This document shows, in pieces, positions 11,042 to 54,779 of a DNA stretch of 64,000 nucleotides (its first letter is position 1; every line of letters begins with the position of its first letter). Source of the DNA: Escherichia phage mogra. A program made the translations under genes and the position numbers. The DNA is taken from the sequence record MN850579.1; one strand, 5' to 3'. The notes under the pieces are model-generated. The model made no database searches. It had not been told where the DNA came from and worked only from the letters and a program-made list of their open reading frames with translations.

Positions 11042-11250
11042 ATATACATTATCCACATCCATATGATCCAAAGAATAAGGCAGTAATTATTCGTCAATGG
11101 GAACGCATTTGTCGTACCAAATGTCCAATTAATAGTCCACATGATGTAGATAAAGACTACATCGGAACATTCGTTGAATATACCTTTATTGATAAGAAAG
11201 GCCGTAAACAACATGTAGAAGAATATTGCTTAAAGGTGACATGGCTATGA
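11038..11250 (+). CDS. hypothetical protein
   Basis: ATG 11038 overlaps upstream stop (ATGA); 70 aa. Confidence 0.5.
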   Translation: MNIHYPHPYDPKNKAVIIRQWERICRTKCPINSPHDVDKDYIGTFVEYTFIDKKGRKQHVEEYCLKVTWL

Positions 11251-15621: not shown

Positions 15622-15652
15622 ATAGATAAATAACCATTAACTTGAGGTAAAT

Positions 15653-15934
15653 ATGAAAAAATTAGTAATTGGTTTATTCGCAGTAATGATGGCATTCTCT
15701 GTTGGTGCTACCACAGGTGCAACCGGCGGTAGTGCAGGAGCTGGTGGTAACCAGTCTTCTGGGCCTTCCAATGGTTCGGTAAATGCATCACATTCTCAGG
15801 GTATTGAGAATATCAGATCAAGCTATATTAATAGCACGGCCGGACAAGCAACTGAAGCATGGTCAAAGGGCCGAGTAGTTACTCGCTCCGTATTCTGTGA
15901 TATGCCTAATTATGTTGCTAAGTGCGATAAGTAA
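15653..15934 (+). CDS. secreted Gly/Ser-rich small protein
   Basis: Signal peptide MKKLVIGLFAVMMAFSVGA; Gly/Ser-rich mature region; 93 aa. Confidence 0.55.
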   Translation: MKKLVIGLFAVMMAFSVGATTGATGGSAGAGGNQSSGPSNGSVNASHSQGIENIRSSYINSTAGQATEAWSKGRVVTRSVFCDMPNYVAKCDK

Positions 15935-15958: not shown

Positions 15959-16052
15959 AGGGGGTTAAAATATTTTTAAAAAGTAGTGTACATGCTTTTA
16001 GGATATGTTATTATAGACCTATCGAAACGAAATGAGTAAATTGGAGAATAAA

Positions 16053-18106: not shown

Positions 18107-19102
18107 ATGAGCATTACATCTGATGCGGTAAAACATGAAATTAATGGTTTATGTGCTTCACAGATTAAAGTGTGGTTTAAAGACCATAACGATCGCAGAG
18201 CACTTAATTATGAGCAAATTGCTATCCAAGTTCATCAATTACTGGTTAGTAAATTTGATTTTCATATGCCGTCTGAAATCTATACTAATCTGCCGCGAGC
18301 ACTTATTAAAGCGTGTAAAGGTTATGGAAAATCAATGGCTGATGGAATCTTCAGCGCGCTGAATAAACTTAACGTTCTGTCGATGATTAACTCTAACAAC
18401 ATCCTGAGTAATCTAGGACGTACTGATTTGTTCGGACGTGAACAGTGTAAAATGCCTTTGAAATGGATTGTTGCTCATCTTAACGAGAACCAAACACGTT
18501 TTATGGCCGTAACAGCACGTTTACAAATGGGCCTAGATCGTCAGATGAACTTTAAAACTCATCCACGTTATTCAGGTTCAACTGACTTTTATAAATGTGA
18601 GCTTCAAAAGGTTGGTGGCAAAACTGTCTTAGTAGTTCGTGTAACGTTTGAAGGACGTCGTCAAGGATATTTTGACATAATCGGCTCTGGACTTAAACAT
18701 TGTGGATTTATCGACGAAGTTGATATCAAGCGAGACGGCATTGGATACCGTATTGGGTATGTTTGTACTCTTAAAGAAGAGATTTCAGGACCAGCTCCAG
18801 GACTAAAAGACGTTAGATATAAAGACGAGCTCGTTGAAGAAATAAAAGAAGTTGAATATGATATCAACCAAGAAGATGCTCTTAAAGACCTTATTGATGA
18901 ACTGAACCAAGACGTTATTCCGGTTCAGAAATTTGAATCAAAACATGCTGAGCAAATCAAATACTTTGAAGCTTTGATTAACGAACTTAATGTAACTATT
19001 CAACAGACTGACGATGAAATCTCACGATTAGCAGGCTTAAACGGTAAAAATAAAACAGAACGAGCTAATCTTATTCAAGTAGTAAAACTTCTTAAGGAAT
19101 GA
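18107..19102 (+). CDS. hypothetical protein with C-terminal coiled coil
   Basis: 331 aa; first of three similar-sized consecutive genes. Confidence 0.6.
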   Translation: MSITSDAVKHEINGLCASQIKVWFKDHNDRRALNYEQIAIQVHQLLVSKFDFHMPSEIYTNLPRALIKACKGYGKSMADGIFSALNKLNVLSMINSNNILSNLGRTDLFGREQCKMPLKWIVAHLNENQTRFMAVTARLQMGLDRQMNFKTHPRYSGSTDFYKCELQKVGGKTVLVVRVTFEGRRQGYFDIIGSGLKHCGFIDEVDIKRDGIGYRIGYVCTLKEEISGPAPGLKDVRYKDELVEEIKEVEYDINQEDALKDLIDELNQDVIPVQKFESKHAEQIKYFEALINELNVTIQQTDDEISRLAGLNGKNKTERANLIQVVKLLKE

Positions 19103-19157: not shown

Positions 19158-20093
19158 ATGGCTTTTATTACACGTAGAGAACTTATCAAAGAATTTACCT
19201 CGAACGCATATACTCCAGGACCTAATCCTATCCGTATGCCTGTAAAGACTCCTGAAGAGATTGAGGAAGTCTGTTCATATTATGGGATTACTTCTCGTAA
19301 GTTTACTCAATTTGAATGCGTTACTAACACACCCGTTAAAGAGTTCATTAAAAATGGTGAGTTCAGCCGTTTATTAGCCAAACAGAAACTTCGTAATTTT
19401 TGTATTGGTGGTGAAGGACAATATTTCGCTAAGCAGTTCCGGAATAACCTTAACAATCTGATGGCCATTGCTTCTCGTATTCGTCCTCAAGCAATTAACA
19501 TGAAACATTTGAAATATACTTACGATAAGTTAGAAATCATGGTTATCAGTGAGAATGAGTTCACTCTTACGTATAAACCTAAGAATGATAACGTTGCTCG
19601 TGTATTCCACCAAGCGTTGGAAGTTTTAGGTGATAATATCCACCAGATTAAAGCAATTTATTCTCGTGAGCTTAATATTATCGACCCTATCAAGAATAAG
19701 GGCCATATCGCTATCCAGGCTCGTGTATCTATTGGTAAAAAGGTTCCTGCGCCATGGTGGCACAAAGACTCTGAATACTATCAAAATCTTAAAAAGGAAA
19801 ATGCAACGTTCGAAGCGTCAATTACTGCAACCCCAATTGGCCATGCTGAAGTTCTAGGTGCATATTCTACTGCTCCATCTATACACATTTCACCGTCGAC
19901 TAAACTGGAAATCTCTAACGGTCTTCTTCCTGCCGAAGATTACCATTATAATCAAATCAAGGCCACTGTAGACCAACTATCCGTTGAACTTGACAAAGCA
20001 CAAGCTAAGCTTCGTGATGCTCAACAAGTAGTTACCAAGCTCCAGTTGCAGTACTCTAAACTTTTTAACGCAATGAATGCATTAAAATCATAA
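19158..20093 (+). CDS. hypothetical protein with C-terminal coiled coil
   Basis: 311 aa. Confidence 0.6.
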   Translation: MAFITRRELIKEFTSNAYTPGPNPIRMPVKTPEEIEEVCSYYGITSRKFTQFECVTNTPVKEFIKNGEFSRLLAKQKLRNFCIGGEGQYFAKQFRNNLNNLMAIASRIRPQAINMKHLKYTYDKLEIMVISENEFTLTYKPKNDNVARVFHQALEVLGDNIHQIKAIYSRELNIIDPIKNKGHIAIQARVSIGKKVPAPWWHKDSEYYQNLKKENATFEASITATPIGHAEVLGAYSTAPSIHISPSTKLEISNGLLPAEDYHYNQIKATVDQLSVELDKAQAKLRDAQQVVTKLQLQYSKLFNAMNALKS

Positions 20094-20157: not shown

Positions 20158-21108
20158 ATGACACGTTCACATTACATTGAATACTTTGCCGGTCTTATCG
20201 CTAACGTTCATGCCCAACGTGCTTCTGGTTCATTAGGATTTGATGTTCCACACCGAGATGTAGTAAGTGGTATTCTTCGCGATTTTGGTACATACACAGG
20301 CCAAGAAAATCATATCTGTAAAGATACTCAAAATGCATATTCTCATTCACTAGGGACGCTGCTTCAATGGTTCAAACGTTCTCGTTTATTATCTTCTACT
20401 GTAGCTCGCGATAACATTAAAAACTTTATGAAACCGAGCTTTATTAAATCTGTGACATCTAAAACCGATTTGGTTGAATTCACTATTGTTAATGATGTTA
20501 AAAAGACTCATTTGGCTGATTGGTTATCTACCATTCCTGAAACTAAATTTGCTGATAAATTTGCTTGTGAATTCAATAAACAAGTGAATATGCTTTTTAA
20601 ACATTCTCGTAAATTATTCACTGGCGGTGATGGCCGTACAAATAAAGTTCATGTTAAAGATTGGGTTACTGCAGTATTCAAACCAACTGGTAATGGTAAC
20701 GCATCATTATCAATTGATATCCAGGTTCCTTATTACTACTCACGTAATCTCGGCACCATGAAAGCCGAAGAAATTAATAAGCACAACAAAACTATTCGTT
20801 CGTTGTCTTATAAACTTATTACATTGTTAGAGACTATGGATGTTGTTGAAACGTTCGACGAATCCGAAGATAACGGTTCAATGTTATATAGTTCTCGTAC
20901 CCGAATTAAGTTGAAGAACCCTAACGAGTATAAACTTAAGACTATTAAAGAACCTAAAGTAGAAAAAGTTGACAACTTGAGCGAAGAACGTGAGTACCTC
21001 AAATCTCGTCTGAAAGAAGTCGAAGCCCAGATTGCAGAACAAACTAAATCGTTAAAAGCTCTGAATGCGAAAGCGGATGGTTTACGAAATGCCATTGAGG
21101 TGTTATAA
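20158..21108 (+). CDS. hypothetical protein with C-terminal coiled coil
   Basis: 316 aa. Confidence 0.6.
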   Translation: MTRSHYIEYFAGLIANVHAQRASGSLGFDVPHRDVVSGILRDFGTYTGQENHICKDTQNAYSHSLGTLLQWFKRSRLLSSTVARDNIKNFMKPSFIKSVTSKTDLVEFTIVNDVKKTHLADWLSTIPETKFADKFACEFNKQVNMLFKHSRKLFTGGDGRTNKVHVKDWVTAVFKPTGNGNASLSIDIQVPYYYSRNLGTMKAEEINKHNKTIRSLSYKLITLLETMDVVETFDESEDNGSMLYSSRTRIKLKNPNEYKLKTIKEPKVEKVDNLSEEREYLKSRLKEVEAQIAEQTKSLKALNAKADGLRNAIEVL

Positions 21109-28742: not shown

Positions 28743-28897
28743 AACTATCTCGAATCACTATAACCGAAGAAAAGTTTGGTGAATTTTAAGTCGACAACTT
28801 TATAAAAGTTACGTATCTTTGATAGTATCTCGTGCTTTAAGATAGGTCTCTAAATATTATGATATAATAGACCTATGAATTGAGCCAAGAGGTACTT

Positions 28898-29455
28898 ATG
28901 ACTGAACAAAAACCTAAAAATAACTATGTGAATAATAAAGAGCTTCTCGCCGCTATAATCGAGTGGAAAAAGGAGCTCTTAAATAATAAAGACCCAAACA
29001 AAATTATTCGTCAGAATGATACTATCGGTTTAGCAATTATGCTTATCGCCGAAGGCCTGTCCAAACGTTTCAACTTTTCAGGATATACCCAGTCTTGGAA
29101 GCAGGAGATGATTGCAGATGGGATTGAAGCCTCTATTAAGGGACTTCATAATTTCGACGAAACTAAGTACAATAACCCACATGCATACATAACTCGAGCT
29201 TGTTTTAATGCTTTTGTCCAACGTATCAAAAAAGAACGTAAGGAAGTTGCAAAGAAATATAGTTACTTCGTTCATAATGTCTACGACAGTCATGACGATG
29301 ATATGGTAGCGTTGGTAGATGAAACGTTTATTCAAGACATCTACGATAAAATGACGCATTATGAAGAATCCGCTTATAAAGCTCCTGGGGCTGAAAAGAA
29401 GGAAGTTGTTAGCGATTCGCCTAGTTTGGATTTTTTATATGAGGATGACAATTGA
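28898..29455 (+). CDS. 55: late-transcription sigma factor gp55
   Basis: [83 protein letters not shown]... near-identical to recalled T4 gp55. Confidence 0.93.
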
Positions 29456-29654
29456 CATCTCTAACTACTTAGAAGAACCTTTTGACGAAGCAATCCCTTA
29501 TTTGGTAAAACTGTTGGGTCGTGAATTTAAAATTAATTTTGACATCGACCCTTTGAACCCACATGACGTGTCATTTTCAATAAATGGGACTCCGGTTGAG
29601 TATGAGTTCTGTATTGAAGAGGATGGACGTTTTTATTTTAATTTAATGAGATAA
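29439..29654 (+). CDS. hypothetical protein
   Basis: In-frame ATG 29439 overlapping gp55 end; 71 aa; start uncertain. Confidence 0.45.
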
Positions 29655-29655
29655 T

Positions 29656-29979
29656 ATGACTACCGAGATTATTGAAAATAAAGAAGCAGAAGATGCAGTA
29701 GCTAAAATGCTACAAGAAATCCAAAAGAAAAATGAAGCTGAAGCACGTAAAAAATCCGAAAAGATTCTTAAAAAGAATCGTTTTGAACTAAACCGTCTTT
29801 ATGCTCATGCTCAAGAAGCAGCAATTCAAAACAACTTCGAAGCTTACGAATATGCTATTAAGAAATCTCGGGATATTCTACGACAACCATATAATGACAA
29901 GTTAATTAAAATCCAGTGGGTTACTACTCGTCAGGCTATTGAGGACATCATTAATGGCGCTAGTTCAAACAAAGTTTAA
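29656..29979 (+). CDS. hypothetical protein
   Basis: TAATATG-coupled; coiled-coil-like; 107 aa. Confidence 0.5.
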   Translation: MTTEIIENKEAEDAVAKMLQEIQKKNEAEARKKSEKILKKNRFELNRLYAHAQEAAIQNNFEAYEYAIKKSRDILRQPYNDKLIKIQWVTTRQAIEDIINGASSNKV

Positions 29980-30160
29980 ACGTCTGAAGCTGAACGCAGG
30001 GTTCACCATTAAATTGGGTGGTCCTCTTTGTGTTAAAATTTCTGAAAAGGAATATCATGACGGTTCTATTACAGAAATTTGTCCGCCTATTGTAAAGGCA
30101 GACCCAAAACAACTCGTGTGGGTTGATTCATTTCAAGTTAAGAAATGGTGGAAACAATGA
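29939..30160 (+). CDS. hypothetical protein
   Basis: 73 aa; alternative start ATG 29954. Confidence 0.45.
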   Translation: MRTSLMALVQTKFKRLKLNAGFTIKLGGPLCVKISEKEYHDGSITEICPPIVKADPKQLVWVDSFQVKKWWKQ

Positions 30161-30199
30161 GAGAAATCGGTTTAGGTATTTTCTGAGAGGTGCTTATGC

Positions 30200-30373
30200 A
30201 TGACGAACATCCCGACTTCTGAAAATTTCGATAAAATCCGTAAAGGCAAAGCAGAAAGAATGAGACGTTTTAAAGAGTCTTATGATAAAGCTAAAGCCGA
30301 AGGAACTATTACATACAAGCCCATTCGATTTAAAAGTTCAAATGAGCCTCTGTACGGTGTACTATGTGGATAG
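30200..30373 (+). CDS. hypothetical protein (57 aa)
   Basis: GAGAGG RBS then ATG 30200; ends at terminator hairpin; not in track. Confidence 0.4.
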   Translation: MTNIPTSENFDKIRKGKAERMRRFKESYDKAKAEGTITYKPIRFKSSNEPLYGVLCG

Positions 30374-30396
30374 GAACTCTTCGGAGTTCCTTTTTT
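30372..30396 (+). terminator. intrinsic terminator
   Basis: AGGAACTC-TTCG-GAGTTCCT hairpin followed by TTTTTT. Confidence 0.7.
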
Positions 30397-30442
30397 GCTT
30401 TATAAACGGATGATAGAATGAATTAACTAATGAGGAAATAAT

Positions 30443-36067: not shown

Positions 36068-36631
36068 ATGAACTTATTTGATGATGACGTCCAACTTAAC
36101 GAGCACCAAATTGCATGGAAGTCTAACGACGCTGATGCGATTCAAAAATGTGCTGACATGTTTAAAGAAAAACCTGAGAATGAATTCTTTAAAATCATTA
36201 ATGCTATTAATGAAAAGAAATCTATGTCAATTGCTCAGGTCGACTACTCAAAATTTATGGTTGAGAACTCATTATCCCAGTTCCCAGAATGTATGCCAGC
36301 CGTTTACATGATGAACTTAGTCGGTTCTGAATTAAGTGATGAAGCGCACTTCAACTATATGATGGCGGCAATTCCACGTGGCCGACGATTCTCTAAATGG
36401 GCTAAACTAGTCGAAGACACTTCAGAGTTACTAGTTATCAAACTGTTGATGAAACATTACACAATCAACATGAATGATGCTACCGAGTATAAGCGGCTCC
36501 TTGAAAAAAATAACAAGTTGCCAATAGTCCTTAAAGAACTGAAGGCCATGGTCACTGATGAGTTTCTCAAAGAAGTTACAAAAAATGTGAAAGAACAAAA
36601 ACAATTTAAAAAATTAGCATTGGAATGGTAA
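36068..36631 (+). CDS. 62: clamp loader small subunit gp62
   Basis: 187 aa between 44 and regA; ...[32 protein letters not shown]... matches recalled T4 gp62. Confidence 0.88.
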
Positions 36632-36633
36632 AA

Positions 36634-37002
36634 ATGATCGAAATTAAATTGAAGAACCCCGAAGATTTTCTGAAAGTCAAAGAGACTCTGACCCGTATGG
36701 GCATCGCTAATAACAAGGATAAAGTTCTTTATCAGTCCTGTCATATCCTCCAAAAGCAAGGTAAATATTACATCGTCCACTTTAAAGAAATGCTGCGTAT
36801 GGACGGACGTCAGGTTGATATTGATGGTGAAGACTATCAGCGACGTGATTCGATTGCTCAGTTGCTTGAAGACTGGGGATTGATTGTTATTGAAGACTCT
36901 GCTCGTGAAGATCTGTTTGGCCTGACTAATAACTTCCGTGTTATCTCTTTTAAACAGAAAGATGACTGGACTTTGAAAGCAAAATATACAATTGGTAATT
37001 AA
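36634..37002 (+). CDS. regA: translational repressor RegA
   Basis: MIEIKLKNPEDFLKVKETLTRMGIANNKDKVLYQSCHILQK...; 122 aa as in T4. Confidence 0.9.
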   Translation: MIEIKLKNPEDFLKVKETLTRMGIANNKDKVLYQSCHILQKQGKYYIVHFKEMLRMDGRQVDIDGEDYQRRDSIAQLLEDWGLIVIEDSAREDLFGLTNNFRVISFKQKDDWTLKAKYTIGN

Positions 37003-37005
37003 AGC

Positions 37006-37026
37006 AATGGGACTTCGGTCCCATTT
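37006..37026 (+). terminator. stable hairpin after regA (weak terminator or processing structure)
   Basis: AATGGGAC-TTCG-GTCCCATT; only a short U-tract follows; TATAAT for gene 43 lies 5 nt downstream. Confidence 0.45.
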
Positions 37027-37083
37027 GGAGTATAATAAGTTCATCAACAAACAAAAGACAATAACTCGTCTAAAGGAAATTAA

Positions 37084-39795
37084 ATGAAAGAATTTTACTT
37101 AACGGTTGAACAGATTGGTGATTCAATTTTTGAACGTTACATCGATTCTAATGGCCGTGAACGTACTCGTGAAGTAGAATATAAACCATCACTGTTTGCT
37201 CATTGTCCAGAAAGTCAGGCTACGAAATATTTCGATATCTACGGTAAGCCGTGTACTCGTAAGCTGTTCGCTAATATGCGTGATGCCTCCCAATGGATTA
37301 AACGCATGGAAGATATCGGACTTGAAGCACTTGGCATGGACGATTTCAAATTGGCGTATTTGTCTGACACTTATAACTATGAAATCAAATACGACCATAC
37401 AAAAATTCGTGTGGCTAACTTCGACATCGAAGTAACATCTCCGGATGGGTTCCCTGAGCCGTCACAAGCAAAACATCCGATTGATGCTATCACCCATTAT
37501 GACTCAATTGACGACAGGTTCTACGTATTTGATCTATTGAATTCTCCATATGGTAATGTAGAAGAATGGTCTATTGAAATCGCTGCTAAGCTTCAAGAAC
37601 AAGGCGGTGATGAAGTTCCATCTGAAATTATCGATAAAATCATTTATATGCCGTTCGATAACGAAAAAGAATTGTTGATGGAATATCTCAACTTCTGGCA
37701 ACAGAAAACTCCTGTCATTTTGACTGGATGGAACGTTGAGTCATTTGATATTCCATATGTGTATAACCGAATCAAGAATATTTTTGGCGAATCTACTGCG
37801 AAACGTTTATCGCCACATCGTAAAACTCGTGTTAAAGTTATCGAAAACATGTATGGTTCTCGTGAAATCATTACATTGTTCGGTATCTCTGTTCTTGATT
37901 ACATTGACCTTTACAAAAAATTCTCTTTTACCAATCAACCGTCGTATTCTCTGGATTACATTTCAGAATTTGAATTGAACGTTGGTAAACTGAAATATGA
38001 CGGCCCTATTTCTAAACTTCGTGAAAGCAATCACCAACGATATATTTCTTATAACATTATCGATGTGTATCGTGTATTGCAAATTGATGCTAAGCGTCAG
38101 TTCATCAACTTGAGTTTGGACATGGGTTATTATGCTAAGATACAGATTCAATCTGTGTTTAGCCCAATTAAAACATGGGATGCTATTATTTTTAATAGCC
38201 TTAAAGAGCAGAACAAGGTGATTCCACAAGGTCGTTCTCACCCGGTTCAACCTTATCCTGGCGCTTTTGTTAAGGAACCTATTCCAAATCGATACAAATA
38301 TGTAATGAGTTTCGACCTTACATCTCTGTATCCAAGCATCATTCGCCAAGTGAATATTAGCCCAGAAACAATAGCAGGAACGTTTAAAGTAGCTCCATTA
38401 CATGATTATATTAACGCAATCGCTGAACGTCCTTCAGATGTGTACAGTTGTTCTCCTAACGGCATGATGTATTATAAAGACCGTGATGGTGTAGTTCCAA
38501 CTGAAATCACTAAGGTCTTTAATCAACGTAAAGAACATAAAGGTTACATGCTTGCAGCTCAACGTAATGGTGAAATAATTAAAGAGGCATTGCATAATCC
38601 TAATCTTTCTGTTGACGAACCATTAGATGTTGATTATCGTTTCGACTTCAGCGATGAGATTAAAGAAAAGATTAAAAAGTTGTCTGCTAAATCTCTTAAT
38701 GAAATGTTGTTTAGAGCTCAACGTACTGAAGTTGCAGGTATGACTGCACAAATTAACCGTAAATTGCTCATCAACTCACTTTATGGTGCACTTGGCAACG
38801 TTTGGTTCCGTTATTATGATTTGCGTAATGCTACTGCAATCACAACATTCGGGCAAATGGCTTTACAGTGGATTGAACGTAAAGTTAATGAATATCTGAA
38901 TGAAGTTTGTGGTACAGAAGGTGAAGCTTTCGTTCTTTATGGTGATACAGACTCCATTTACGTATCTGCGGATAAAATTATTGATAAGGTTGGTGAATCT
39001 AAATTCCGTGATACTAACCATTGGGTAGACTTCTTAGATAAGTTCGCTCGTGAACGTATGGAACCTGCTATTGATAGAGGTTTCCGTGAAATGTGCGAAT
39101 ACATGAATAATAAGCAACATTTGATGTTCATGGACCGAGAAGCTATTGCTGGCCCTCCGCTCGGTTCTAAAGGTATTGGTGGATTCTGGACTGGTAAGAA
39201 ACGTTATGCATTAAACGTGTGGGATATGGAAGGCACTCGTTATGCTGAGCCTAAACTCAAAATCATGGGTCTAGAGACTCAGAAATCTTCGACCCCTAAA
39301 GCAGTACAGAAAGCTCTTAAAGAATGTATTCGTCGTATGCTTCAAGAAGGTGAAGAATCATTACAAGAATATTTTAAAGAGTTTGAAAAAGAATTCCGTC
39401 AATTGAATTATATTAGCATCGCGTCGGTATCTTCTGCGAATAACATTGCTAAATATGATGTCGGTGGATTCCCTGGTCCCAAATGCCCGTTCCATATTCG
39501 TGGAATTCTGACGTATAACCGGGCTATCAAAGGTAATATCGATGCACCACAAGTTGTAGAAGGTGAAAAAGTATATGTTCTGCCTTTACGTGAAGGAAAC
39601 CCATTCGGTGATAAATGTATCGCATGGCCTTCTGGCACTGAAATAACAGATTTAATTAAAGACGACGTACTTCATTGGATGGACTACACTGTTCTCCTTG
39701 AGAAGACATTTATTAAACCACTTGAAGGATTCACATCAGCAGCGAAACTCGATTACGAGAAGAAAGCATCTCTGTTCGATATGTTCGATTTTTGA
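37084..39795 (+). CDS. 43: DNA polymerase gp43 (family B)
   Basis: Exo I motif ANFDIEVT; polymerase motif LYGDTDSIYV; 903 aa. Confidence 0.95.
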   Translation: MKEFYLTVEQIGDSIFERYIDSNGRERTREVEYKPSLFAHCPESQATKYFDIYGKPCTRKLFANMRDASQWIKRMEDIGLEALGMDDFKLAYLSDTYNYEIKYDHTKIRVANFDIEVTSPDGFPEPSQAKHPIDAITHYDSIDDRFYVFDLLNSPYGNVEEWSIEIAAKLQEQGGDEVPSEIIDKIIYMPFDNEKELLMEYLNFWQQKTPVILTGWNVESFDIPYVYNRIKNIFGESTAKRLSPHRKTRVKVIENMYGSREIITLFGISVLDYIDLYKKFSFTNQPSYSLDYISEFELNVGKLKYDGPISKLRESNHQRYISYNIIDVYRVLQIDAKRQFINLSLDMGYYAKIQIQSVFSPIKTWDAIIFNSLKEQNKVIPQGRSHPVQPYPGAFVKEPIPNRYKYVMSFDLTSLYPSIIRQVNISPETIAGTFKVAPLHDYINAIAERPSDVYSCSPNGMMYYKDRDGVVPTEITKVFNQRKEHKGYMLAAQRNGEIIKEALHNPNLSVDEPLDVDYRFDFSDEIKEKIKKLSAKSLNEMLFRAQRTEVAGMTAQINRKLLINSLYGALGNVWFRYYDLRNATAITTFGQMALQWIERKVNEYLNEVCGTEGEAFVLYGDTDSIYVSADKIIDKVGESKFRDTNHWVDFLDKFARERMEPAIDRGFREMCEYMNNKQHLMFMDREAIAGPPLGSKGIGGFWTGKKRYALNVWDMEGTRYAEPKLKIMGLETQKSSTPKAVQKALKECIRRMLQEGEESLQEYFKEFEKEFRQLNYISIASVSSANNIAKYDVGGFPGPKCPFHIRGILTYNRAIKGNIDAPQVVEGEKVYVLPLREGNPFGDKCIAWPSGTEITDLIKDDVLHWMDYTVLLEKTFIKPLEGFTSAAKLDYEKKASLFDMFDF

Positions 39796-39835: not shown

Positions 39836-40471
39836 ATGAAAACTACACCAATCACTATCGCTATTGACGCAATTGTAAAACAAGCTTCATCTCTTGCCAC
39901 TATGGCTAAAGTAATTAGTCAAAACCATGCTCGTTATAATGCTATTCTAGAAACTCTTCGACGCCCTGGACTTAGTAATTATGAAAGCCGGGTAATTATT
40001 ACAGGTGTTGGTAAGAATGCTAATATCGCAACTAAAGCTTCCGAGACTTTTGCTTCACTAGGTATTCCTAGCATGTATTTGAATACCGGGCATTATTCTC
40101 ATGGTGACGCAGGATTTATTGCACCTAATGATGTATTAGTTCACATCAGTCGTTCTGGTAAGACTGAAGAAATGATAGGTGTTGCTAAACATCTTCGTAT
40201 GATTCGTCCTCAGGTTAAACAGATTCTGTTACATTGTAACCCTGACATTCCACAAGAATACGAAGCTCTTTTTGATTATACGTTCTGTACCGGTATCGCG
40301 GTAGAAGTTGACGAGAACTCTTTAGCTCCGACAATGTCTACTACATTGTTGTTAGCGCTTATCGATACGTTCGCTATCAACCTTTCGTCTGAACGTGGAT
40401 TTACCTCTAATGATTTCCTTAAGTTCCATCCAGGCGGTGCACTAGGTGCCATGTTACGAGGCGAACAATGA
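39836..40471 (+). CDS. SIS-domain sugar-phosphate isomerase, arabinose-5-phosphate isomerase (KpsF/GutQ)-like
   Basis: ITGVGKNANIATKASETFASLG, HISRSGKTEE, LAPTMSTT and HPGGALG match recalled KpsF/GutQ SIS signatures; no CBS domains. Confidence 0.78.
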   Translation: MKTTPITIAIDAIVKQASSLATMAKVISQNHARYNAILETLRRPGLSNYESRVIITGVGKNANIATKASETFASLGIPSMYLNTGHYSHGDAGFIAPNDVLVHISRSGKTEEMIGVAKHLRMIRPQVKQILLHCNPDIPQEYEALFDYTFCTGIAVEVDENSLAPTMSTTLLLALIDTFAINLSSERGFTSNDFLKFHPGGALGAMLRGEQ

Positions 40472-40652: not shown

Positions 40653-42338
40653 ATGAAAAAAGCTGTTATTCTTGGTGCTGGACTGGCAACTCGTTTGTAT
40701 CCAATAACGCATCATATTCCTAAGGTGCTTGTGAACTATAAACAAGACACTATTCTGAGCAATTTGTATACAATTTATTCTGACCTTGGCGCAGATGAAA
40801 TTATTGTAGTAGTTCATTCAAAATTTGCTGAAACTGTTCGAGCTTATTGTGAGCAAGAAGGGTTCAATGTGACTATTCGTACAGTTGATGAAGCGTATGG
40901 TTCTGCTTATGCTCTTGCTAAATTACACAAAGATTTAGACGGTCATAATGTAATTGTTAACTGGTGCGATATTATTCCTGATTTTGGTTCATGGTCTTGG
41001 AATGTTAACGCAATCTATGTTAAGGGTGATGAATGTCGATATAATTTCGACGGTGAAAATATCACTAACGTAGGTTCAACAGGTGGTAATGTTGTAGGAA
41101 TTTATCAGTTCAAAGACTGGGAATTCTATATGGGTTCTACTGATGAGGAAATTCATGAATACTGCAAAGGACGTGATTTCGTAGAATTCCTTTACAGCGC
41201 CGCATTCAATAAATCAGAGCTTATGAATCTAATTGATTTAGGTGATATGCCTAAACTTGAAAAGGCTCATGAAGTTCGTGAACTTAATCGTAGTTTTAAC
41301 GCAGTTGAAATTGGTGAAGAAACTGTAACTAAATTCGCATTAACCGAACAGGGTCGAGCTCTTCAGAAAGATGAGATTTCATGGTATTTGAAAGTGAAAT
41401 CAGATTCAGTTCCTCAGTTAGTTTCTGTTAATGAAAATAACTTTGAAATGGAACGCATTAAAGGTAAGCCAGCATTTGAATATATTAAATCCAAATCAAG
41501 TCTTGCTCGTCCACAAATTGTTGATGCAATTTTAGATGCACTGAAATTCAGCACAGACACTTATTTTGTAAGTCCTGAAACTGTTCGTCGTGATTTCACT
41601 AAAGAATTCTATACGAAAGTTATTGATCGTTGTGAAAGCATTCAACCATTGATTGATTCATTTGGTAAAATCACGCATGTGAACTACACTAAGATTGGAC
41701 GTCTGAAGCCAATGCTGAAACAAGCTTTAGAACACCTTATTCGTTATCATAACCGTTCTCAGGGACAGTACTCTGTTATTCATGGCGACCCGAACTTCAG
41801 TAATACTATGATTACTGATAATGGCGAAGTCAAGTTTATCGACCCTCGTGGATATTTTGGTGAAACCAAGATTTACGGGCCGAAATTGTACGACGAAGCT
41901 AAAGTGCTTTACGCTGTTTCAGGTTATGATGAATTCAACGCTAATCCGACCTGGGGGCAGTTTACTATTGATGAAACAACTTGTAATGTGACTATTAACA
42001 TCAATCCATTAGTTTACAAATATGGAAAGATGAGTTCGTTTAACGAGTATCATCATTTGGCAGTGGCAATTATCTGGATTGCATTAGGTGGTTATTTCAA
42101 GAATAATCCACTTAAAGCGGTAGCCGCATATTATAAAGGTATGGAACTTCTGACTAAGCAATTACGTAACATGGGCCGTGTACTTCAGGACGGCTCTATT
42201 AGTTATGACGTAGCAGAACCTGTAACGGCTACTCTGATTACAAAAAATCCTGGTAAGTGGGTACTAACTGATAAAGAAACTGGTGTTTCCTATCGTCCAA
42301 TAGGTGGCGATATCACTCATCAATGGGAACGAATCTAA
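40653..42338 (+). CDS. bifunctional sugar-1-phosphate nucleotidyltransferase / APH-fold sugar kinase
   Basis: N-terminal LGAGLATRLYP...PK (GxGxR NTP-transferase motif); C-terminal VIHGDPNFSNTMITDNGEVKFIDPRG (kinase catalytic and metal loops); 561 aa. Confidence 0.72.
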   Translation: MKKAVILGAGLATRLYPITHHIPKVLVNYKQDTILSNLYTIYSDLGADEIIVVVHSKFAETVRAYCEQEGFNVTIRTVDEAYGSAYALAKLHKDLDGHNVIVNWCDIIPDFGSWSWNVNAIYVKGDECRYNFDGENITNVGSTGGNVVGIYQFKDWEFYMGSTDEEIHEYCKGRDFVEFLYSAAFNKSELMNLIDLGDMPKLEKAHEVRELNRSFNAVEIGEETVTKFALTEQGRALQKDEISWYLKVKSDSVPQLVSVNENNFEMERIKGKPAFEYIKSKSSLARPQIVDAILDALKFSTDTYFVSPETVRRDFTKEFYTKVIDRCESIQPLIDSFGKITHVNYTKIGRLKPMLKQALEHLIRYHNRSQGQYSVIHGDPNFSNTMITDNGEVKFIDPRGYFGETKIYGPKLYDEAKVLYAVSGYDEFNANPTWGQFTIDETTCNVTININPLVYKYGKMSSFNEYHHLAVAIIWIALGGYFKNNPLKAVAAYYKGMELLTKQLRNMGRVLQDGSISYDVAEPVTATLITKNPGKWVLTDKETGVSYRPIGGDITHQWERI

Positions 42339-42724
42339 TGCACCGCGTAGAAAACATGCTTAATCTTTGTTTTGATGTCGATGATTGTATAACAGAGTGG
42401 AATAACAATCGTGATTACGTGAACTTCAAGCCAGACGTCGAAATGGTGTCTGCCATTAATGCCCTGTATGATGCAGGGCATACCATAACGCTTTACACTG
42501 CTCGCGGTATGAAGTCAGTCGGTCCTGGTCGTATAGCAATTGACATTCTCCCAAGTCTGATTCAGAACTTGGCAAACATTGGCTTGAAGTACCATAATTT
42601 GCTAACACATAAACCAGTATATGATTGGATTATCGACGACAAAGCTATGCGTCCTGACGAATTCAAAGCTCTTATGAATAAAGGCGAATTCGAAACATTT
42701 AAATCATATAAACCGAATCTATAA
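42338..42724 (+). CDS. HAD-superfamily phosphatase
   Basis: Motif I CFDVDDCIT, Thr/Arg motif LYTARG, C-terminal DD (WIIDDKA); ATG 42338 overlaps upstream stop (TAATG). Confidence 0.6.
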   Translation: MHRVENMLNLCFDVDDCITEWNNNRDYVNFKPDVEMVSAINALYDAGHTITLYTARGMKSVGPGRIAIDILPSLIQNLANIGLKYHNLLTHKPVYDWIIDDKAMRPDEFKALMNKGEFETFKSYKPNL

Positions 42725-42784: not shown

Positions 42785-43945
42785 ATGAATACTTTTAAAA
42801 TCGGAACGAATTTTGATTTAGCTCTTCTTGATAAAATCGTAGAGCTCAATAAAACTTATCCTAATAGCTTGATAAATGAAGTATACGGCTCTACAAGAGA
42901 AATGGCTTTTGTAGCAGCCAGACCTGATTTTAGGCTTCCTGACATTGACAAAAAGATGTTAGAAGATTATGTTAAACGTTGTAACGAATTAGGTATTTGC
43001 TTTAACTATACACTCAACACGATAAATCCTGGTTCAAAAAGAGAACTAGTTGAGTGGAAGAAGAAAGCTATTCAGGATTATGTTCAGTATCTTTGGTCAA
43101 TAGGCGTATGGCGTATTACTATCGCTAACCCTGTTGTTATGGAAATTGTTCGTGAAGTCAATAAAGACATTGAGATTGAAGTTTCAACAATTCTACATGT
43201 CGATGCTGTAACTCAAATCAAATACTTGCATGACCAGTATAATATCAAAAAGGTCTGCTGTGGAATTCATAAGAACCGTTCAGTTTCTTTCCTGAAGCGT
43301 GCAGCAGAGTTTTGCAATAAGAACAATATAATATTTGAAGTTCTTGTAAATGAGTTCTGTTCTAATGCTGGTAAAGGGTATACAACACATTGTAGCTATC
43401 GTGACTCTTGCTATATTTTCCATAGTACTGATGTTACAGCTGATGATGCTAAATCCTTAAACGGATATCCAATGCAGCACTGTATTAAAGCTCGTGATAC
43501 AGACCCATTTAACTGGTTGAGAACTCGTTTTGTTCGTCCTCAAGATTTGAAACTTTATAATGATATCGGTATCACTCAATTCAAAGTTTCAGGACGTACA
43601 GGTAGCACAGACTACATTTTGAAAGTTCTTGAAGCATACGCTTCTGAAAAGTTTGAAGGTAATTTGTTAGAACTGTGGAAGCCTTTAGAGACTATTTTCA
43701 CTCTTGAAAACGAAACTGAGTTTTCACATACAGTAAATATTGAAACCTCTTTGTTAGATGGCTTTTTAGAAAAAAGGTGGTTCAGACATCCAGATTTCGA
43801 TTGTGCTAATGAAATCTGCGGGACGACGTGTACATATTGTGAAAGATATTATAAACGTCAATTATCTAAAAACGGGTTAGCAGAAAACTCTATATCTATT
43901 ATTGATATAACTAACTCTGATGACGCTTTGAGGTACCCGGAATGA
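42785..43945 (+). CDS. peptidase-U32-family protein (family includes O2-independent hydroxylases)
   Basis: Block pattern FNYTLNT...ITIANPVV...EIEVST...VLVNEFC...G...HCSYRDSC parallels recalled U32 TIM-barrel signature; second cluster CANEICGTTCTYC. Confidence 0.5.
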   Translation: MNTFKIGTNFDLALLDKIVELNKTYPNSLINEVYGSTREMAFVAARPDFRLPDIDKKMLEDYVKRCNELGICFNYTLNTINPGSKRELVEWKKKAIQDYVQYLWSIGVWRITIANPVVMEIVREVNKDIEIEVSTILHVDAVTQIKYLHDQYNIKKVCCGIHKNRSVSFLKRAAEFCNKNNIIFEVLVNEFCSNAGKGYTTHCSYRDSCYIFHSTDVTADDAKSLNGYPMQHCIKARDTDPFNWLRTRFVRPQDLKLYNDIGITQFKVSGRTGSTDYILKVLEAYASEKFEGNLLELWKPLETIFTLENETEFSHTVNIETSLLDGFLEKRWFRHPDFDCANEICGTTCTYCERYYKRQLSKNGLAENSISIIDITNSDDALRYPE

Positions 43946-44181
43946 TTTCTAGAAAAACTTTTAACCACCGACTTAATGAAGAGATTTTGACTATGAAACT
44001 GAACACTAATGAACAAATTCTTAAAAAGGCCCTGATGGGCCTGTTTGAAACTAAAGCGGCTAAAGTGATTAAAGAACCTGTTCAATTGGAATACTACGCT
44101 GATGCATTTCTTCATAGTGTTCTTGGAAGTATCGATGCTGAATCTTTACGTTATATCAACATTGTCAAGAAATTCAAATAA
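43942..44181 (+). CDS. hypothetical small protein
   Basis: ATGA overlap with U32-like gene; 79 aa; no motif. Confidence 0.45.
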   Translation: MISRKTFNHRLNEEILTMKLNTNEQILKKALMGLFETKAAKVIKEPVQLEYYADAFLHSVLGSIDAESLRYINIVKKFK

Positions 44182-44223: not shown

Positions 44224-44940
44224 ATGGGAAAACATAACACAATGAAATATATCAAAGCCGCAGATTTTCAAACCGCATTTAAAGCAGTCAATCGTGAAAT
44301 TTTAGAAAACCCGGAATTCGTAACTGATTCTCGTATTGGACGTTGTAATGAAATTGGGTCTATGACAGTAGTTGTTGACACTCCATCATCATTCAAAATG
44401 ACCGACCCACGTATTAACCGCATCTCTTATGAATATGCCGAAGACTTCTGGAAGTTTATGATTTCCGGTGGTACCAACGCAGAAGAAGCGTTTAAGGCAT
44501 ATCCTAATGTCGCTAAATTTATTTCTAAACCAAAATCAGATGTTTTGCCGGCGAACTTCAACACTTTCTATGGTCCTCGCATTGCGGCCCAATTACCAGC
44601 TCTTCTAAAAGAACTTAAAGAGAAGCCTAACTCTCGAAGAGTTGTGTTCCAAATTCTAGAAAGTTCTGATCAGGCTTTGCTTGATTCGGACGAAACGCTT
44701 GAATATCCATGTACTGACTCAGTGACTTATTATATTCGTGATGGTAAGCTTTATACCCACTGTCATATGCGTTCTCAGAACTGTGCTGTTGTTATGCAGT
44801 TGGATTTTTATCTCCAAGGAAAATTACTTCATTATATCGCTAACGAATGTGGTGTAGAAGTTGGTGATTATACTCATACCATGGTAAGTGCCCATGTGTT
44901 TGAACGTGATTTTGATTATGTTAAAGGATTCCTTGACTAA
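44224..44940 (+). CDS. thymidylate-synthase-fold pyrimidine C5 enzyme, dCMP hydroxymethylase-like, divergent
   Basis: PNSRR phosphate loop; catalytic Pro-Cys (YPCTD); MRSQN...QLDFY with Asp at the ThyA Asn177-equivalent position; EVGDY...H. Confidence 0.78.
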   Translation: MGKHNTMKYIKAADFQTAFKAVNREILENPEFVTDSRIGRCNEIGSMTVVVDTPSSFKMTDPRINRISYEYAEDFWKFMISGGTNAEEAFKAYPNVAKFISKPKSDVLPANFNTFYGPRIAAQLPALLKELKEKPNSRRVVFQILESSDQALLDSDETLEYPCTDSVTYYIRDGKLYTHCHMRSQNCAVVMQLDFYLQGKLLHYIANECGVEVGDYTHTMVSAHVFERDFDYVKGFLD

Positions 44941-45839
44941 TGGCTATTTTCCGCGTACCAATCTTGAGTATGCGGTCTTATGAAACTGGACAGTATGCTA
45001 TCCTTAAGGATGGCAACTTCCAACTTCATTTGCACCGTGCTAATCCAGGCGATGTGATTACATATCCACGTAATGCATCTGATATTAAAGAATGTGAACG
45101 TCTTTTCCCAGAATTTAAGTTTGTTCCATTATGGTATAAAGATAACGCGTATAACACTCGTAAATATTTCTGGTCCGAAAATGAATTTGTGGTTGATTCA
45201 TTAATTGCTTATTATGATTGTGATTTTCTAATCACAGATATCACTGGATATAACGGCGCTTTTGATGTAGAATTCAATTTCAATATCACGGCAGACCCTA
45301 ATAAACCACGTTTTTATATTGGCGAATTCTTAAAAACCGATATGTTGTCAGTTAATAGTTCACTTCAAACTACTGTGTTGAATGAACGTCAAAAAGAAGT
45401 GCTGGTTAACGCAGGTGCAGATGGTAATAAGATTATCGTAACTCAGAAAGTTATACGTCCTTCCATCATGCAGCGTCTTGTAGGTGATTTGGCTCCTATT
45501 CATCTAGATGGTATTTTTCATCCATTTCGAATTAGTGACCCGTGCTATCGTTTTGAACAAGTGGTTGAATGTGCAATTCAATTAGGCCAACCGCTTTATA
45601 TAACCGATCCAAATAATAGCTTCGACAGAAATAAGTATCCTGAAGAAGCGCTGATTCGAATTTTTAAACCAACTAAAACTGAGTACTATCAAATTCTTAA
45701 AGGACGTCCGAAGATTCAATATTTCGAAAATCCTGAAGAAGTATTTCATCCAGGTCTTGGTGAGTTCATCTACTTTAATGCTTTAATTTCTTCGCCGTAT
45801 AATATACCTAAATACGAAGATGTCGTAATCGAGGAATAA
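44940..45839 (+). CDS. hypothetical protein (299 aa), candidate DNA sugar transferase
   Basis: TAATG-coupled to the TS-fold gene; no recognisable motif; function inferred from context only. Confidence 0.5.
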   Translation: MAIFRVPILSMRSYETGQYAILKDGNFQLHLHRANPGDVITYPRNASDIKECERLFPEFKFVPLWYKDNAYNTRKYFWSENEFVVDSLIAYYDCDFLITDITGYNGAFDVEFNFNITADPNKPRFYIGEFLKTDMLSVNSSLQTTVLNERQKEVLVNAGADGNKIIVTQKVIRPSIMQRLVGDLAPIHLDGIFHPFRISDPCYRFEQVVECAIQLGQPLYITDPNNSFDRNKYPEEALIRIFKPTKTEYYQILKGRPKIQYFENPEEVFHPGLGEFIYFNALISSPYNIPKYEDVVIEE

Positions 45840-45840: not shown

Positions 45841-46389
45841 ATGGCTAAAATTATTTTAGTAGATGGCCCGGATAATGCCGGTAAAACAACTTTCATTAAT
45901 GACATAATGGAAATTAGTGAAAGATATGTAAAGATTGATTTCCCTAAACGAACAGTTGATGGACGTTTCGATGTTAAGTCTCGAAATGAAGTTGGTTGTT
46001 TCGAAACGATGTTGAATTATTTAGACCCTACTAAGATTTATCTGTTAGACCGTGGATATATTAGTAACTGGGTTTATGGACGTATTCGACAAGATGCGGA
46101 CTCTGTTCTTGATGTTTATGAGCAGGATTATGTTCGTCTTTGCCAAAACCATGATGTGTTCACAATTATTTTAACACGTAACGAAATGACTGAAAGTTTT
46201 GAAGACGACCTTATTACTTTGTCTTCATTCGGTTTTAATACAGTCATTTCACATTTTGAAGAGTTTGCAATTCATAACAAAATCCAAACGTATCAATTAC
46301 TTAATCATGATGGTGCTAACAAAGTTATAGGATTTAATGCAAGCGAACGTAATGGTTTGATTACAGAAATCATCAAATGGGCTCGTTAA
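45841..46389 (+). CDS. P-loop nucleotide kinase (thymidylate-kinase-like)
   Basis: P-loop VDGPDNAGKTT; DRGY motif (LLDRGYISNWVYGR) reminiscent of Tmk DRY/DRH; 182 aa. Confidence 0.62.
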   Translation: MAKIILVDGPDNAGKTTFINDIMEISERYVKIDFPKRTVDGRFDVKSRNEVGCFETMLNYLDPTKIYLLDRGYISNWVYGRIRQDADSVLDVYEQDYVRLCQNHDVFTIILTRNEMTESFEDDLITLSSFGFNTVISHFEEFAIHNKIQTYQLLNHDGANKVIGFNASERNGLITEIIKWAR

Positions 46390-51574: not shown

Positions 51575-51575
51575 T

Positions 51576-54257: not shown

Positions 54258-54779
54258 ATGGCGCACTTTAATGAATGTTCACAACTTATTTCTGGTGTTG
54301 ATAAAGCAGAAGAAGCTTATTTTAATGCTCTGATTCACGAAGATAAAGACCCACTTCAGGTAATGCTTGATATGCAGAAATCTTTACAGGTTCGTCTGGC
54401 AAATGACAAGCCTGAACATAACAAACATCCTGATGAATTGGCTACTGCTGGTGATGTTGTTGATTGGCTGCGTAATCAGAAAGATTATATTGATGATGAA
54501 TTCCGTGAACTGTTGACTTCACTTGGTGGTATGAGCAATGGTGAAAAAGCCGCCAGCAGTGTATGGAAGCCTTGGAAAGCACAACATGCTGAATATCGAA
54601 ATCGTCGTATCGATGAACTGTCTCCTGAAGACCAGCTTGAAATTAAATTTGAGATGATTGATATTCTTCATTTCGTTCTGAATATGTTCCAGGGTCTTGG
54701 TCTTACAGCAGAAGAAATCTTTAAACTTTACTACTTGAAAAACCAACACAACTTTGAACGCCAGGATAATGGTTACTGA
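54258..54779 (+). CDS. 56: dCTP pyrophosphatase gp56 (MazG-like)
   Basis: ATG 54258 after AGGA; all-alpha MazG-like NTP-PPase; position between 61 and soc; 173 aa. Confidence 0.8.
   Translation: MAHFNECSQLISGVDKAEEAYFNALIHEDKDPLQVMLDMQKSLQVRLANDKPEHNKHPDELATAGDVVDWLRNQKDYIDDEFRELLTSLGGMSNGEKAASSVWKPWKAQHAEYRNRRIDELSPEDQLEIKFEMIDILHFVLNMFQGLGLTAEEIFKLYYLKNQHNFERQDNGY

Follow-up and report, generated by a model that had tools for sequence, protein, structure and literature searches.

Neither a homolog of the T4 glucosyltransferase genes a-gt and b-gt nor one of ba-gt was found in phage RB69, the DNA of which contains arabinose, and a search of this phage with BLASTP and custom HMMs retrieved only ORF003c, a remote GT-B protein (PMC6024577). 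RB69 DNA carries mono- and di-arabinosyl-5-hydroxycytosine, with gp45 to gp55 as the gene cluster involved, and the activity of gp48 as 5-hydroxy-dCMP (5hodCMP) synthase has been shown (PMC13326640). In vitro, this work reported glycosyltransferase activity only for gp76 plus gp77 of phage DLP3, not for RB69 gp46:47 or gp3 (PMC13326640). Similarly, 5-ara-dC and 5-ara-ara-dC were found by LC-MS in the DNA of NicPhage (PMC13390438). DNA chemistry has also been published for Bas46 and Bas47 (cited in PMC13326640). That the genus Mosigvirus lacks glucosyltransferases was described in papers of 2018 and 2026. In RB69-like phages, the lack of a-gt and b-gt has been visible in the annotation since 2003; the arabinosylation paper of 2018 explicitly started from it, and it was explained mechanistically by the work on arabinosyl-5-hydroxycytosine of 2025-2026. 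The absence of a-gt described below is real, explained, and already known, and adds little that is new.

The DNA analyzed (hereafter called the window) is a 64-kb stretch of Escherichia phage mogra (MN850579.1), representing 38% of a genome of about 168 kb; for the remainder, the absence of a glucosyltransferase was inferred from relatives. Its closest matches place the window in the genus Mosigvirus, that of the RB69- and PhAPEC2-like T4-type coliphages. Indeed, its proteins are 92-100% identical to those of RB69, and PhAPEC2, Bas46, JK45, NicPhage (98%), and about 145 further Mosigvirus records are 97-99% identical to it at the nucleotide level. Bas46 aligned with 62.6 of the 64 kb (98%) at 93-98.5% identity, corresponding to about 97% overall; compared with RB69 and other Mosigvirus members, a few short stretches in other parts of the window were without a match.

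The interval between genes 55 and 47

A sequence-only reading of the window had placed the a-gt gene of T4 between genes 47 and 55. This matches the T4 record, in which a-gt (1203 nt) occurs there together with mobB and 47.1, and in which genes 55 and 47 are 3152 nt apart (record positions 36448-39599). In the window, only 987 nt separate the end of gp55 (29455) from the start of gp47 (30443), the surplus DNA of T4 consisting of mobB, a-gt, and 47.1. As that reading had stated, no a-gt gene is present in this interval, including the stretch from a-gt.2 to gene 47, and four small genes and a terminator take up the space (Table 1). The four ORFs listed earlier (71, 107, 73, and 57 amino acids) all exist, although the third one likelier starts at the ATG at 29954, giving 68 amino acids as in RB69 and T4, than at the TTG at 29939. 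Because BLASTP against T4 a-gt.5, a-gt.4, a-gt.3, and a-gt.2 returned identities of 47-76% (E 9e-19 to 3e-38), and because all four matched PHROG families and three of them Pfam DUFs, these ORFs are genuine conserved genes instead of chance ORFs. As in T4, the first one shares 17 nt with the 3' end of gene 55. The maximal ORF of gene 55 itself extends from 28880 to 29455, the start at 28898 being set by alignment with RB69 gp55.

Table 1. Position, strand, and supporting evidence of the features of the window
Feature	Position	Strand	Evidence and remarks
Gene 55 (late sigma factor gp55)	28898..29455	+	185 aa; 99.5% identical to RB69 gp55; annotated in PhAPEC2, Bas46, RB69
a-gt.5 homolog, 71 aa	29439..29654	+	47% to T4 a-gt.5 (E 9e-19; alignment starts at residue 1); Pfam DUF5491; phrog_1169
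a-gt.4 homolog, 107 aa	29656..29979	+	58% to T4 a-gt.4, E 3e-38; Pfam DUF2654; 100% to RB69p069
a-gt.3 homolog, 68 aa	29954..30160	+	71% to T4 a-gt.3, E 3e-35; 97% to RB69p068 over 68 aa; phrog_1648
a-gt.2 homolog, 57 aa	30200..30373	+	76% to T4 a-gt.2, E 1e-29; Pfam DUF5486
Intrinsic terminator	30372..30397	+	Terminator scan; GC-rich stem of 8 bp with TTCG loop and T-run; immediately 3' of a-gt.2 stop codon
Middle-promoter-like site	30393..30419	+	TTTGCTTTA (MotA-box-like), 11 nt, TAGAAT; sequence and alignment of five modules
Gene 47 (SbcD-like recombination nuclease subunit), 339 aa	30443..31462	+	99.4% identical to RB69 gp47
Arabinose-5-phosphate isomerase (RB69p055 homolog)	39836..40471	+	Pfam SIS; NCBIfam KpsF/GutQ, KdsD; 96% to RB69p055
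Bifunctional sugar kinase/nucleotidyltransferase (RB69p053:052, AfhE-like), intact, 561 aa	40653..42338	+	Pfam NTP_transferase and kinase-like; NCBIfam; 99% to RB69p053, p052
HAD-type sugar phosphatase (RB69p051, AfhF-like)	42338..42724	+	NCBIfam capsule biosynthesis phosphatase, E 3.8e-13; 99% to RB69p051
U32-family protein (RB69p050)	42785..43945	+	Pfam Peptidase_U32; Fe-S-enzyme-type cysteine patterns; 99% to RB69p050
79-aa ORF (RB69p049)	43942..44181	+	92% to RB69p049; site of chorismate mutase in many related phages
Thymidylate-synthase homolog (5-hydroxy-dCMP synthase)	44224..44940	+	99.2% to RB69 gp48; 25% to T4 gp42
GT-B-fold glycosyltransferase, 299 aa (RB69p047:046 fused; predicted first arabinosyltransferase)	44940..45839	+	T4 b-gt slot
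Thymidylate-kinase-like nucleotide kinase (RB69p045)	45841..46389	+	98.9% to RB69p045
Gene 56 dCTPase (removes dCTP from pool)	54258..54779	+	97.7% to RB69 gp56

The order 55, a-gt.5, a-gt.4, a-gt.3, a-gt.2, terminator, 47 is shared with RB69, PhAPEC2, Bas46, Bas47, and NicPhage, the compact layout being annotated as such in RB69, PhAPEC2, and Bas46. In addition, at least 80% of the 2.7-kb region is found as a single piece in 146 phage records. The short interval could also be due to faulty assembly, or to a deletion of recent date, in this sequence alone, and the repeated terminator/promoter modules around a-gt in other genera could mediate such a deletion, but the identical layout of these 146 independent records, with up to 99.2% identity and including RB69 (sequenced in 2003), makes this extremely unlikely.

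The 69 nt between the stop of a-gt.2 (30373) and the start of gene 47 (30443) are occupied by the terminator and a promoter-like site. The terminator had been noticed before and was borne out by folding, as its stem (30372-30391) reached -13.9 kcal/mol (z = -4.3), with none of 200 shuffled sequences folding as well; furthermore, the PhAPEC2 record has a terminator annotated at the same site. The site downstream is a putative middle promoter, predicted by its likeness to the T4 middle-promoter consensus. An alignment of five modules showed that the terminator/promoter module is present once in the window and twice in T4 and Klebsiella phage Mineola (Jiaodavirus), with a copy at either end of a-gt. 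The latter phage has the same order from gene 55 through a-gt.2 to the terminator and gene 47; unlike the window, it carries an a-gt that is 66% identical to that of T4 between a-gt.2 and gene 47, without mobB or 47.1. The a-gt gene is present between a-gt.2 and gene 47 in Tequatrovirus and Jiaodavirus and absent here, and the single copy of the module marks the place where the gene would sit. As two copies flank a-gt wherever it is present, it may be speculated that the genera came to differ through recombination between the two copies, or through insertion of a unit consisting of the gene plus a module.

Search for glucosyltransferase genes

Searches with T4 a-gt, T4 b-gt, and RB27 ba-gt (tblastn and phmmer, E ≤ 1) retrieved no homolog in the 64-kb window. 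Applied to the complete genome of Bas46, which is about 97% identical, the same three queries returned chance-level matches only (best tblastn E 0.065). With phmmer --max on all stop-to-stop segments, the best E value was 0.16. A ba-gt of the RB27/T2 type was considered as an alternative and rejected, with no match in the window and a best E of 0.85 in the Bas46 genome. Similarly, neither of the two Mosigvirus glycosyltransferases matched the Pfam families AGT (PF11440), T4-Gluco-transf (PF09198), and TAGT (PF20691), which recognized the T4 and RB27 proteins used as positive controls at 2.9e-260, 9.4e-98, and 1.2e-9, respectively. Six large unassigned ORFs (1347-2303, 2681-3367, 18107-19102, 19158-20093, 20158-21108, and 51567-52226) contained no glycosyltransferase domain, only DUFs and AdfA.

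A degenerate remnant of a-gt was sought as well. The sole local match at word size 2 in the interval between genes 55 and 47 (29436-29567, E 1.4) falls within the a-gt.5 homolog and is due to chance. At this word size, the best a-gt match of the whole window (16179-16418, E 0.014) is at chance level too and does not concern a glycosyltransferase; the ORF that carries it (16032-17033) displays AAA-ATPase/HTH Pfam traces and belongs to phrog_1250. Across the phage collection, 657 records contain an a-gt homolog; they form a Tequatrovirus-like band (at least 90% identity), a Klebsiella-phage band (about 66%), and a small number of distant ones.

Given that the window covers only 38% of the genome and that T4-type genomes shuffle accessory genes, an a-gt, b-gt, or ba-gt that glucosylates hydroxymethylcytosine (hmC) might have been relocated beyond the 64 kb. 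This is very improbable in view of the result for the complete Bas46 genome and of the RB69 searches, which gave only the remote ORF003c (PMC6024577). Moreover, the substrate for glucosylation would not be made, the enzyme concerned being a 5-hydroxy-dCMP synthase and not a hydroxymethylase.

Predicted arabinosyl-5-hydroxycytosine cassette

The region from gp43 to uvsX contains the same cassette as RB69 and other Mosigvirus members, with proteins that are 92-100% identical to RB69p045-p055. It starts after gp43 with the isomerase gene, and all genes for UDP-arabinose formation (isomerase, kinase/nucleotidyltransferase, and phosphatase) were retrieved, at 96-99.7% identity to RB69p055, p053:052, and p051. 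The function of the kinase/nucleotidyltransferase is taken from PMC13326640. The RB69 reference record splits the genes for the 561-aa and 299-aa proteins in two, which the literature ascribes to sequencing errors; both are intact ORFs here. The 79-aa ORF was tried as a chorismate mutase and rejected, as it has no Pfam match and no similarity to its positional counterpart in KLB31.

The thymidylate-synthase homolog had been labelled gene 42, a name that does not hold, since its identity to T4 gp42 is a mere 25% and it is no dCMP hydroxymethylase. It is nearly identical to the sequences of PDB entries 9iqc, 9ir2, and 9iqu (E 7.9e-161). Many records nevertheless carry it as dCMP hydroxymethylase; for annotation, this means that genes named so, or gene 42, in such genomes encode a 5-hydroxy-dCMP synthase. 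Because the gene 42 homolog is such a synthase, there would be no hmC to glucosylate, and the phage is predicted to be devoid of hmC itself. A test of its DNA with enzymes that depend on glucosyl-hmC, as suggested earlier, would therefore be trivially negative.

The earlier statement that the 42/uvsX locus is without a b-gt-like gene was right insofar as no b-gt ortholog was found; the slot is not empty, however, since it holds the 299-aa glycosyltransferase, with a confident GT-B fold. Its ORF, upstream of uvsX, begins at the stop codon that closes the gene for the thymidylate-synthase homolog, and its analogy to T4 b-gt is one of position and fold only, not orthology. In both T4 and the window, a GT-B gene directly follows a thymidylate-synthase homolog. 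The ba-gt (TAGT) of T2, T6, and RB27 is likewise situated directly downstream of a thymidylate-synthase-family gene, but it has no sequence similarity to the 299-aa protein, which does not match the TAGT family. A second glycosyltransferase, of the RB69 ORF003c type, had no match in the window; in all relatives, Bas46 and RB69 among them, its gene is situated between gene 39 and rIIA.1, and 155 records contain it at 95% identity or more. This locus falls a few kilobases past the 3' end of the window. The protein is a very remote GT-B relative of a-gt and a candidate arabinosyltransferase. Its presence does not contradict the absence of a-gt, because it is not a bona fide a-gt.

The pathway proposed is based on the 92-100% protein identity to RB69 and on the published biochemistry of RB69, Bas46, and NicPhage. 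The gp56 dCTPase and the flavin- and O2-dependent thymidylate-synthase homolog would channel the dCMP pool via 5-hydroxy-dCMP into DNA. The isomerase, the kinase/uridylyltransferase, and the phosphatase would convert ribulose-5-phosphate into UDP-arabinofuranose, from which the two GT-B glycosyltransferases, one encoded downstream of the thymidylate-synthase homolog and the other outside the window, adjacent to rIIA.1, may put one or two arabinoses on the 5-hydroxyl group. Since the genus makes use of a 5-hydroxycytosine base and arabinose as sugar, the absence of a-gt is almost certainly the expected genus-wide state of a phage whose base and sugar both differ from those of T4. The earlier suggestion of an alternative cassette in place of T4-type glucosylation agrees with the biology of the genus (PMC6024577, PMC13326640, PMC13390438).

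The presence of a thymidylate-synthase-family gene and a dCTPase, together with the many dCMP hydroxymethylase annotations, could also point to bare, unglycosylated hmC, as in the a-gt- b-gt- double mutant of T4. There is very little chance of this, however, as the enzyme is a near-copy (99.2% identity) of RB69 gp48, the product of which is 5-hydroxy-dCMP (PMC13326640), as the window has intact genes for the whole UDP-arabinose pathway and for a GT-B transferase, and as arabinosylated dC was detected by LC-MS in close relatives (PMC13390438).

With T4, the window shares the genomic backbone, the four small a-gt.x genes, and a common logic, in which a dCTPase and a thymidylate-synthase-family enzyme replace cytosine and GT-B enzymes add a sugar. 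It differs by lacking mobB, a-gt, 47.1, and a b-gt ortholog. Furthermore, the base would be 5-hydroxycytosine instead of 5-hydroxymethylcytosine, the identity of the thymidylate-synthase homologs being low, and the sugar, arabinofuranose, would come from the phage's own enzymes, whereas T4 draws on UDP-glucose of the host. For phage use, it is relevant that Mosigvirus DNA does not respond as T4 DNA does to restriction, CRISPR, and type IV (modification-dependent) restriction systems.

A U32-family protein in the cassette

The RB69 counterpart of the U32-family protein has been labelled only as a sugar or heterocycle reductase (NAR 2026). The protein contains ten invariant cysteine residues, including a C-terminal Cx4Cx3Cx2C pattern, and gave no match to PDB sequences at E ≤ 1. 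By analogy with other systems, it might be a prephenate-dependent, O2-independent C5-hydroxylase of cytosine nucleotides, serving as a backup during anaerobic growth of the host for the 5-hydroxy-dCMP synthase, which depends on O2 and flavin, a tentative idea that is on balance rather unlikely. The analogues are RlhA, which forms ho5C in 23S rRNA, and TrhP, which forms ho5U in tRNA. Across phage genera, the U32 protein is at least 80% identical, versus 44-68% for the adjoining glycosyltransferase. Prephenate is the product of chorismate mutase, and 48 related phages have a bona fide gene for this enzyme, with the U32 gene on one side and the thymidylate-synthase homolog on the other. The U32 gene is absent from all Acinetobacter phages possessing the rest of the cassette, Acinetobacter being an obligately aerobic host. 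A further pointer is that, on other phage contigs, U32 homologs that are 50-57% identical adjoin genes for dCMP deaminase, dNK/NT5C, or a TAGT-like transferase plus dUTPase. Against the idea count the Dhakavirus coliphages, which have the pathway without the U32 gene, and the absence of a chorismate mutase from the window. If it were true, a gut phage could keep its DNA hypermodified without oxygen.

Absence of T4-type glucosyltransferases

The absence of the T4 alpha-glucosyltransferase gene (a-gt) between genes 55 and 47 is real, was correctly interpreted in its main point by the sequence-only reading, and is already known. Indeed, 987 nt separate both genes (Table), in agreement with the proposed interval of less than 1 kb, whereas 3152 nt separate them in T4, where a-gt.5, a-gt.4, a-gt.3, a-gt.2, mobB, a-gt, and 47.1 are found; exactly mobB, a-gt, and 47.1 are lacking from the interval here. 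The annotation of RB69, PhAPEC2, and Bas46 shows the same compact layout. The four small ORFs noticed in the interval exist and are homologues of a-gt.5 (47% identity), a-gt.4 (58%), a-gt.3 (71%), and a-gt.2 (76%) of T4, a homology backed by Pfam DUF or PHROG families. As to their sizes, the start of the 71-aa ORF is supported, since its product aligns with T4 a-gt.5 from the first residue onwards and the overlap with gene 55 is likewise 17 nt, but for the 73-aa ORF the most likely start is an ATG that gives 68 aa, the length in RB69 and T4. The terminator that had been noted was retrieved directly 3' of the a-gt.2 stop codon; it is a GC-rich, TTCG-looped hairpin followed by a T-run (-13.9 kcal/mol; z = -4.3).

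Searches with tblastn for T4 a-gt, the T4 beta-glucosyltransferase (b-gt), and the T2-type beta-glucosyl-HMC-alpha-glucosyltransferase of RB27 (ba-gt) gave no match at E <= 1 in the window and chance-level matches only (E 0.065 and 0.85) in the complete Bas46 genome, which stood in for the rest of the genome. Unfiltered phmmer, applied to all stop-to-stop segments of 50 aa or longer, reached an E-value of 0.16 at best. The Pfam families AGT, T4-Gluco-transf, and TAGT recognised the positive controls (E 2.9e-260, 9.4e-98, and 1.2e-9, respectively) and matched neither Mosigvirus glycosyltransferase. The suggested lack of T4-type glucosylation was thereby upheld, and the literature agrees that no glucosyltransferase is present. 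Among the phage collection, a-gt homologues occurred in 657 records, in a Tequatrovirus band (at least 90% identity), a Klebsiella phage band (approximately 66%), and a few distant ones. Of two ORFs of approximately 330 aa in the nrdC-region equivalent, one carries an RlaP domain (RNA-repair-pathway polymerase-beta-family nucleotidyltransferase); the other, with AAA-ATPase/HTH traces, gave the best tblastn match to a-gt with word size 2, but this match is at chance level and the ORF was rejected as an a-gt relative.

The 2.7-kb region around the interval matched 709 phage records, 146 of which spanned 80% or more of its length without interruption, with identities reaching 99.2%; the best matches were all Mosigvirus (PhAPEC2, F2, phiE142, APCEc01, and mar005P1). 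Similarly, a 25-kb stretch of the window was approximately 98% identical to the Mosigvirus phages JK45, Bas46 'ChristianSchoenbein', and NicPhage, the whole Bas46 genome aligned 62.6 of the 64 kb (93-98.5% identity), and the proteins of the relevant regions were 92-100% identical to those of RB69. The plus strand runs in the direction of falling T4 map coordinates. Four small variable segments of the early-gene region had no megablast match in the otherwise approximately 97% identical Bas46 genome.

Features of the window and of the loci used for comparison
Feature	Position	Family match or basis
Variable segments	6755-7115, 8878-9160, 11032-11441, 15620-15931	megablast
~330-aa ORF	14632-15621	RlaP
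~330-aa ORF	16032-17033	AAA-ATPase/HTH traces
71-aa ORF, start	29439	T4 a-gt.5
gp55, end	29455	
73-aa ORF, most likely start	29954	RB69 and T4
Terminator/promoter module	30372-30419	
gp47, start	30443	
gp43	37084-39795	
Arabinose-5-phosphate isomerase	39836-40471	SIS; KpsF/GutQ/KdsD
561-aa nucleotidyltransferase + kinase	40653-42338	Pfam, NCBIfam
HAD phosphatase	42338-42724	NCBIfam
U32-family protein	42785-43945	Pfam
79-aa ORF	43942-44181	no family match
Thymidylate-synthase homologue	44224-44940	Pfam, NCBIfam
299-aa ORF	44940-45839	structure
Thymidylate-kinase-like protein	45841-46389	RB69p045
uvsX	46488-47660	
Anti-DarT factor A	51567-52226	Pfam AdfA, E 2.9e-119
T4 modules (L002, minus strand)	18678-18737, 16570-16630	
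Mineola modules (L010)	3426-3485, 4692-4752	
KLB31 chorismate mutase (L012)	7155-7394	Pfam CM_2, E 1.3e-9

Arabinosyl-5-hydroxycytosine pathway

The alternative cassette proposed in place of T4-type glucosylation was confirmed as eight genes between gp43 and uvsX, all eight products being 92-100% identical to RB69p045-p055. Two of these genes are split in the RB69 reference record (p053/p052 and p047/p046), whereas the window has single intact ORFs of 561 and 299 aa, which fits the published attribution of the RB69 splits to sequencing errors. The gene that had been read as gene 42 encodes a thymidylate-synthase homologue with 25% identity to T4 gp42 versus 99.2% to RB69 gp48; near-identical proteins have solved structures (9iqc, 9ir2, and 9iqu). 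RB69 gp48 converts dCMP into 5-hydroxy-dCMP with O2 and flavin, and RB69 DNA contains mono- and di-arabinosylated 5-hydroxycytosine (PMC13326640). Similarly, 5-ara-dC and 5-ara-ara-dC were found by HPLC/MS in Mosigvirus NicPhage (PMC13390438), which is 98% identical to the window. Given this near-identity to a proven 5-hydroxy-dCMP synthase, the labels 'dCMP hydroxymethylase' and 'deoxycytidylate 5-hydroxymethyltransferase' in many public records look, from sequence comparison, like a widespread mis-annotation.

The 299-aa protein, modelled from a 50-sequence alignment (pLDDT 94.5; pTM 0.89), adopts a GT-B fold; its best Foldseek match was the retaining glycosyltransferase MshA (3c4q), and T4 b-gt was not among the top 60 matches. 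The T4 b-gt slot is thus taken by a GT-B enzyme that is not orthologous to b-gt and is predicted to be the first arabinosyltransferase. A second predicted arabinosyltransferase (RB69 ORF003c, bas46_0103) is encoded a few kb past the window end, between gene 39 and rIIA.1, and occurs at an identity of at least 95% in 155 records. Two corrections to the sequence-only reading follow: the hydroxymethylcytosine that it implied is not involved at all, and the 42/uvsX locus, although devoid of a b-gt orthologue as claimed, does hold a glycosyltransferase. The system is the RB69/Mosigvirus arabinosyl-5-hydroxycytosine system, every defining feature testable within the window having been found. It resembles that of T4 in outline, with dCTP removal, formation of a C5-oxygenated dCMP by a thymidylate-synthase-family enzyme, and glycosylation by GT-B enzymes, but differs from those of T4 and T2 in that none of its enzymes belongs to the a-gt, b-gt, or ba-gt families.

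A candidate oxygen-independent hydroxylase

Ten cysteines are invariant in the U32-family protein, among them those of a C-terminal Cx4Cx3Cx2C motif, and the protein is at least 80% identical among phages of Escherichia, Klebsiella, Yersinia, Serratia, Proteus, and Shewanella; its gene is missing from all 57 records of Acinetobacter phages in which the neighbouring glycosyltransferase is present. Between the U32 gene and that of the thymidylate-synthase homologue, 48 related T4-like phages, Klebsiella phage KLB31 among them, have a small chorismate mutase gene, whereas this slot holds the unrelated 79-aa ORF in the window. In other phage-like contigs, the neighbours of homologues with 50-57% identity are genes for dCMP deaminase plus DNA polymerase III alpha, for NT5C plus a deoxynucleoside kinase, or for a TAGT-like transferase plus dUTPase/DCD. 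RlhA and TrhP are both U32-family proteins. RlhA forms 5-hydroxycytidine in rRNA by means of an Fe-S cluster and prephenate, and TrhP, which depends on prephenate, is the counterpart of TrhO, which depends on O2 (PMC13602947). Together, these features and analogies make it a reasonable hypothesis that the U32 protein, the RB69 counterpart of which is listed as 'sugar or heterocycle reductase' (PMC13326640), is a candidate prephenate-dependent cytosine hydroxylase, providing an O2-independent route to 5-hydroxycytosine. The presence of the pathway without a U32 gene in Dhakavirus JS10 argues against this.

A repeated module flanking a-gt

The 69 nt from a-gt.2 to gene 47 consist of one module, namely the TTCG-loop hairpin, the T-run, TTTGCTTTA (which resembles the T4 MotA box), 11 nt, and TAGAAT. 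In general form, the module spans approximately 50 nt, with the terminator hairpin, the MotA-box-like TTGCTTTAT, and TAnAAT, and is present as a single copy in the window. T4 has two copies, after a-gt.2 and after a-gt. In Klebsiella phage Mineola (Jiaodavirus), the module occurs on both sides of an a-gt gene that is 66% identical to that of T4 and has the same location; mobB and 47.1 are lacking there. All five copies align. Recombination between two copies would remove a-gt cleanly, and a-gt would be gained if a gene-plus-module unit were inserted; the module could hence mediate a clean gain or loss of a-gt in either direction. Elsewhere in the window, the anti-DarT factor A ORF represents a counter-defence gene directed at DarTG, a toxin-antitoxin system.
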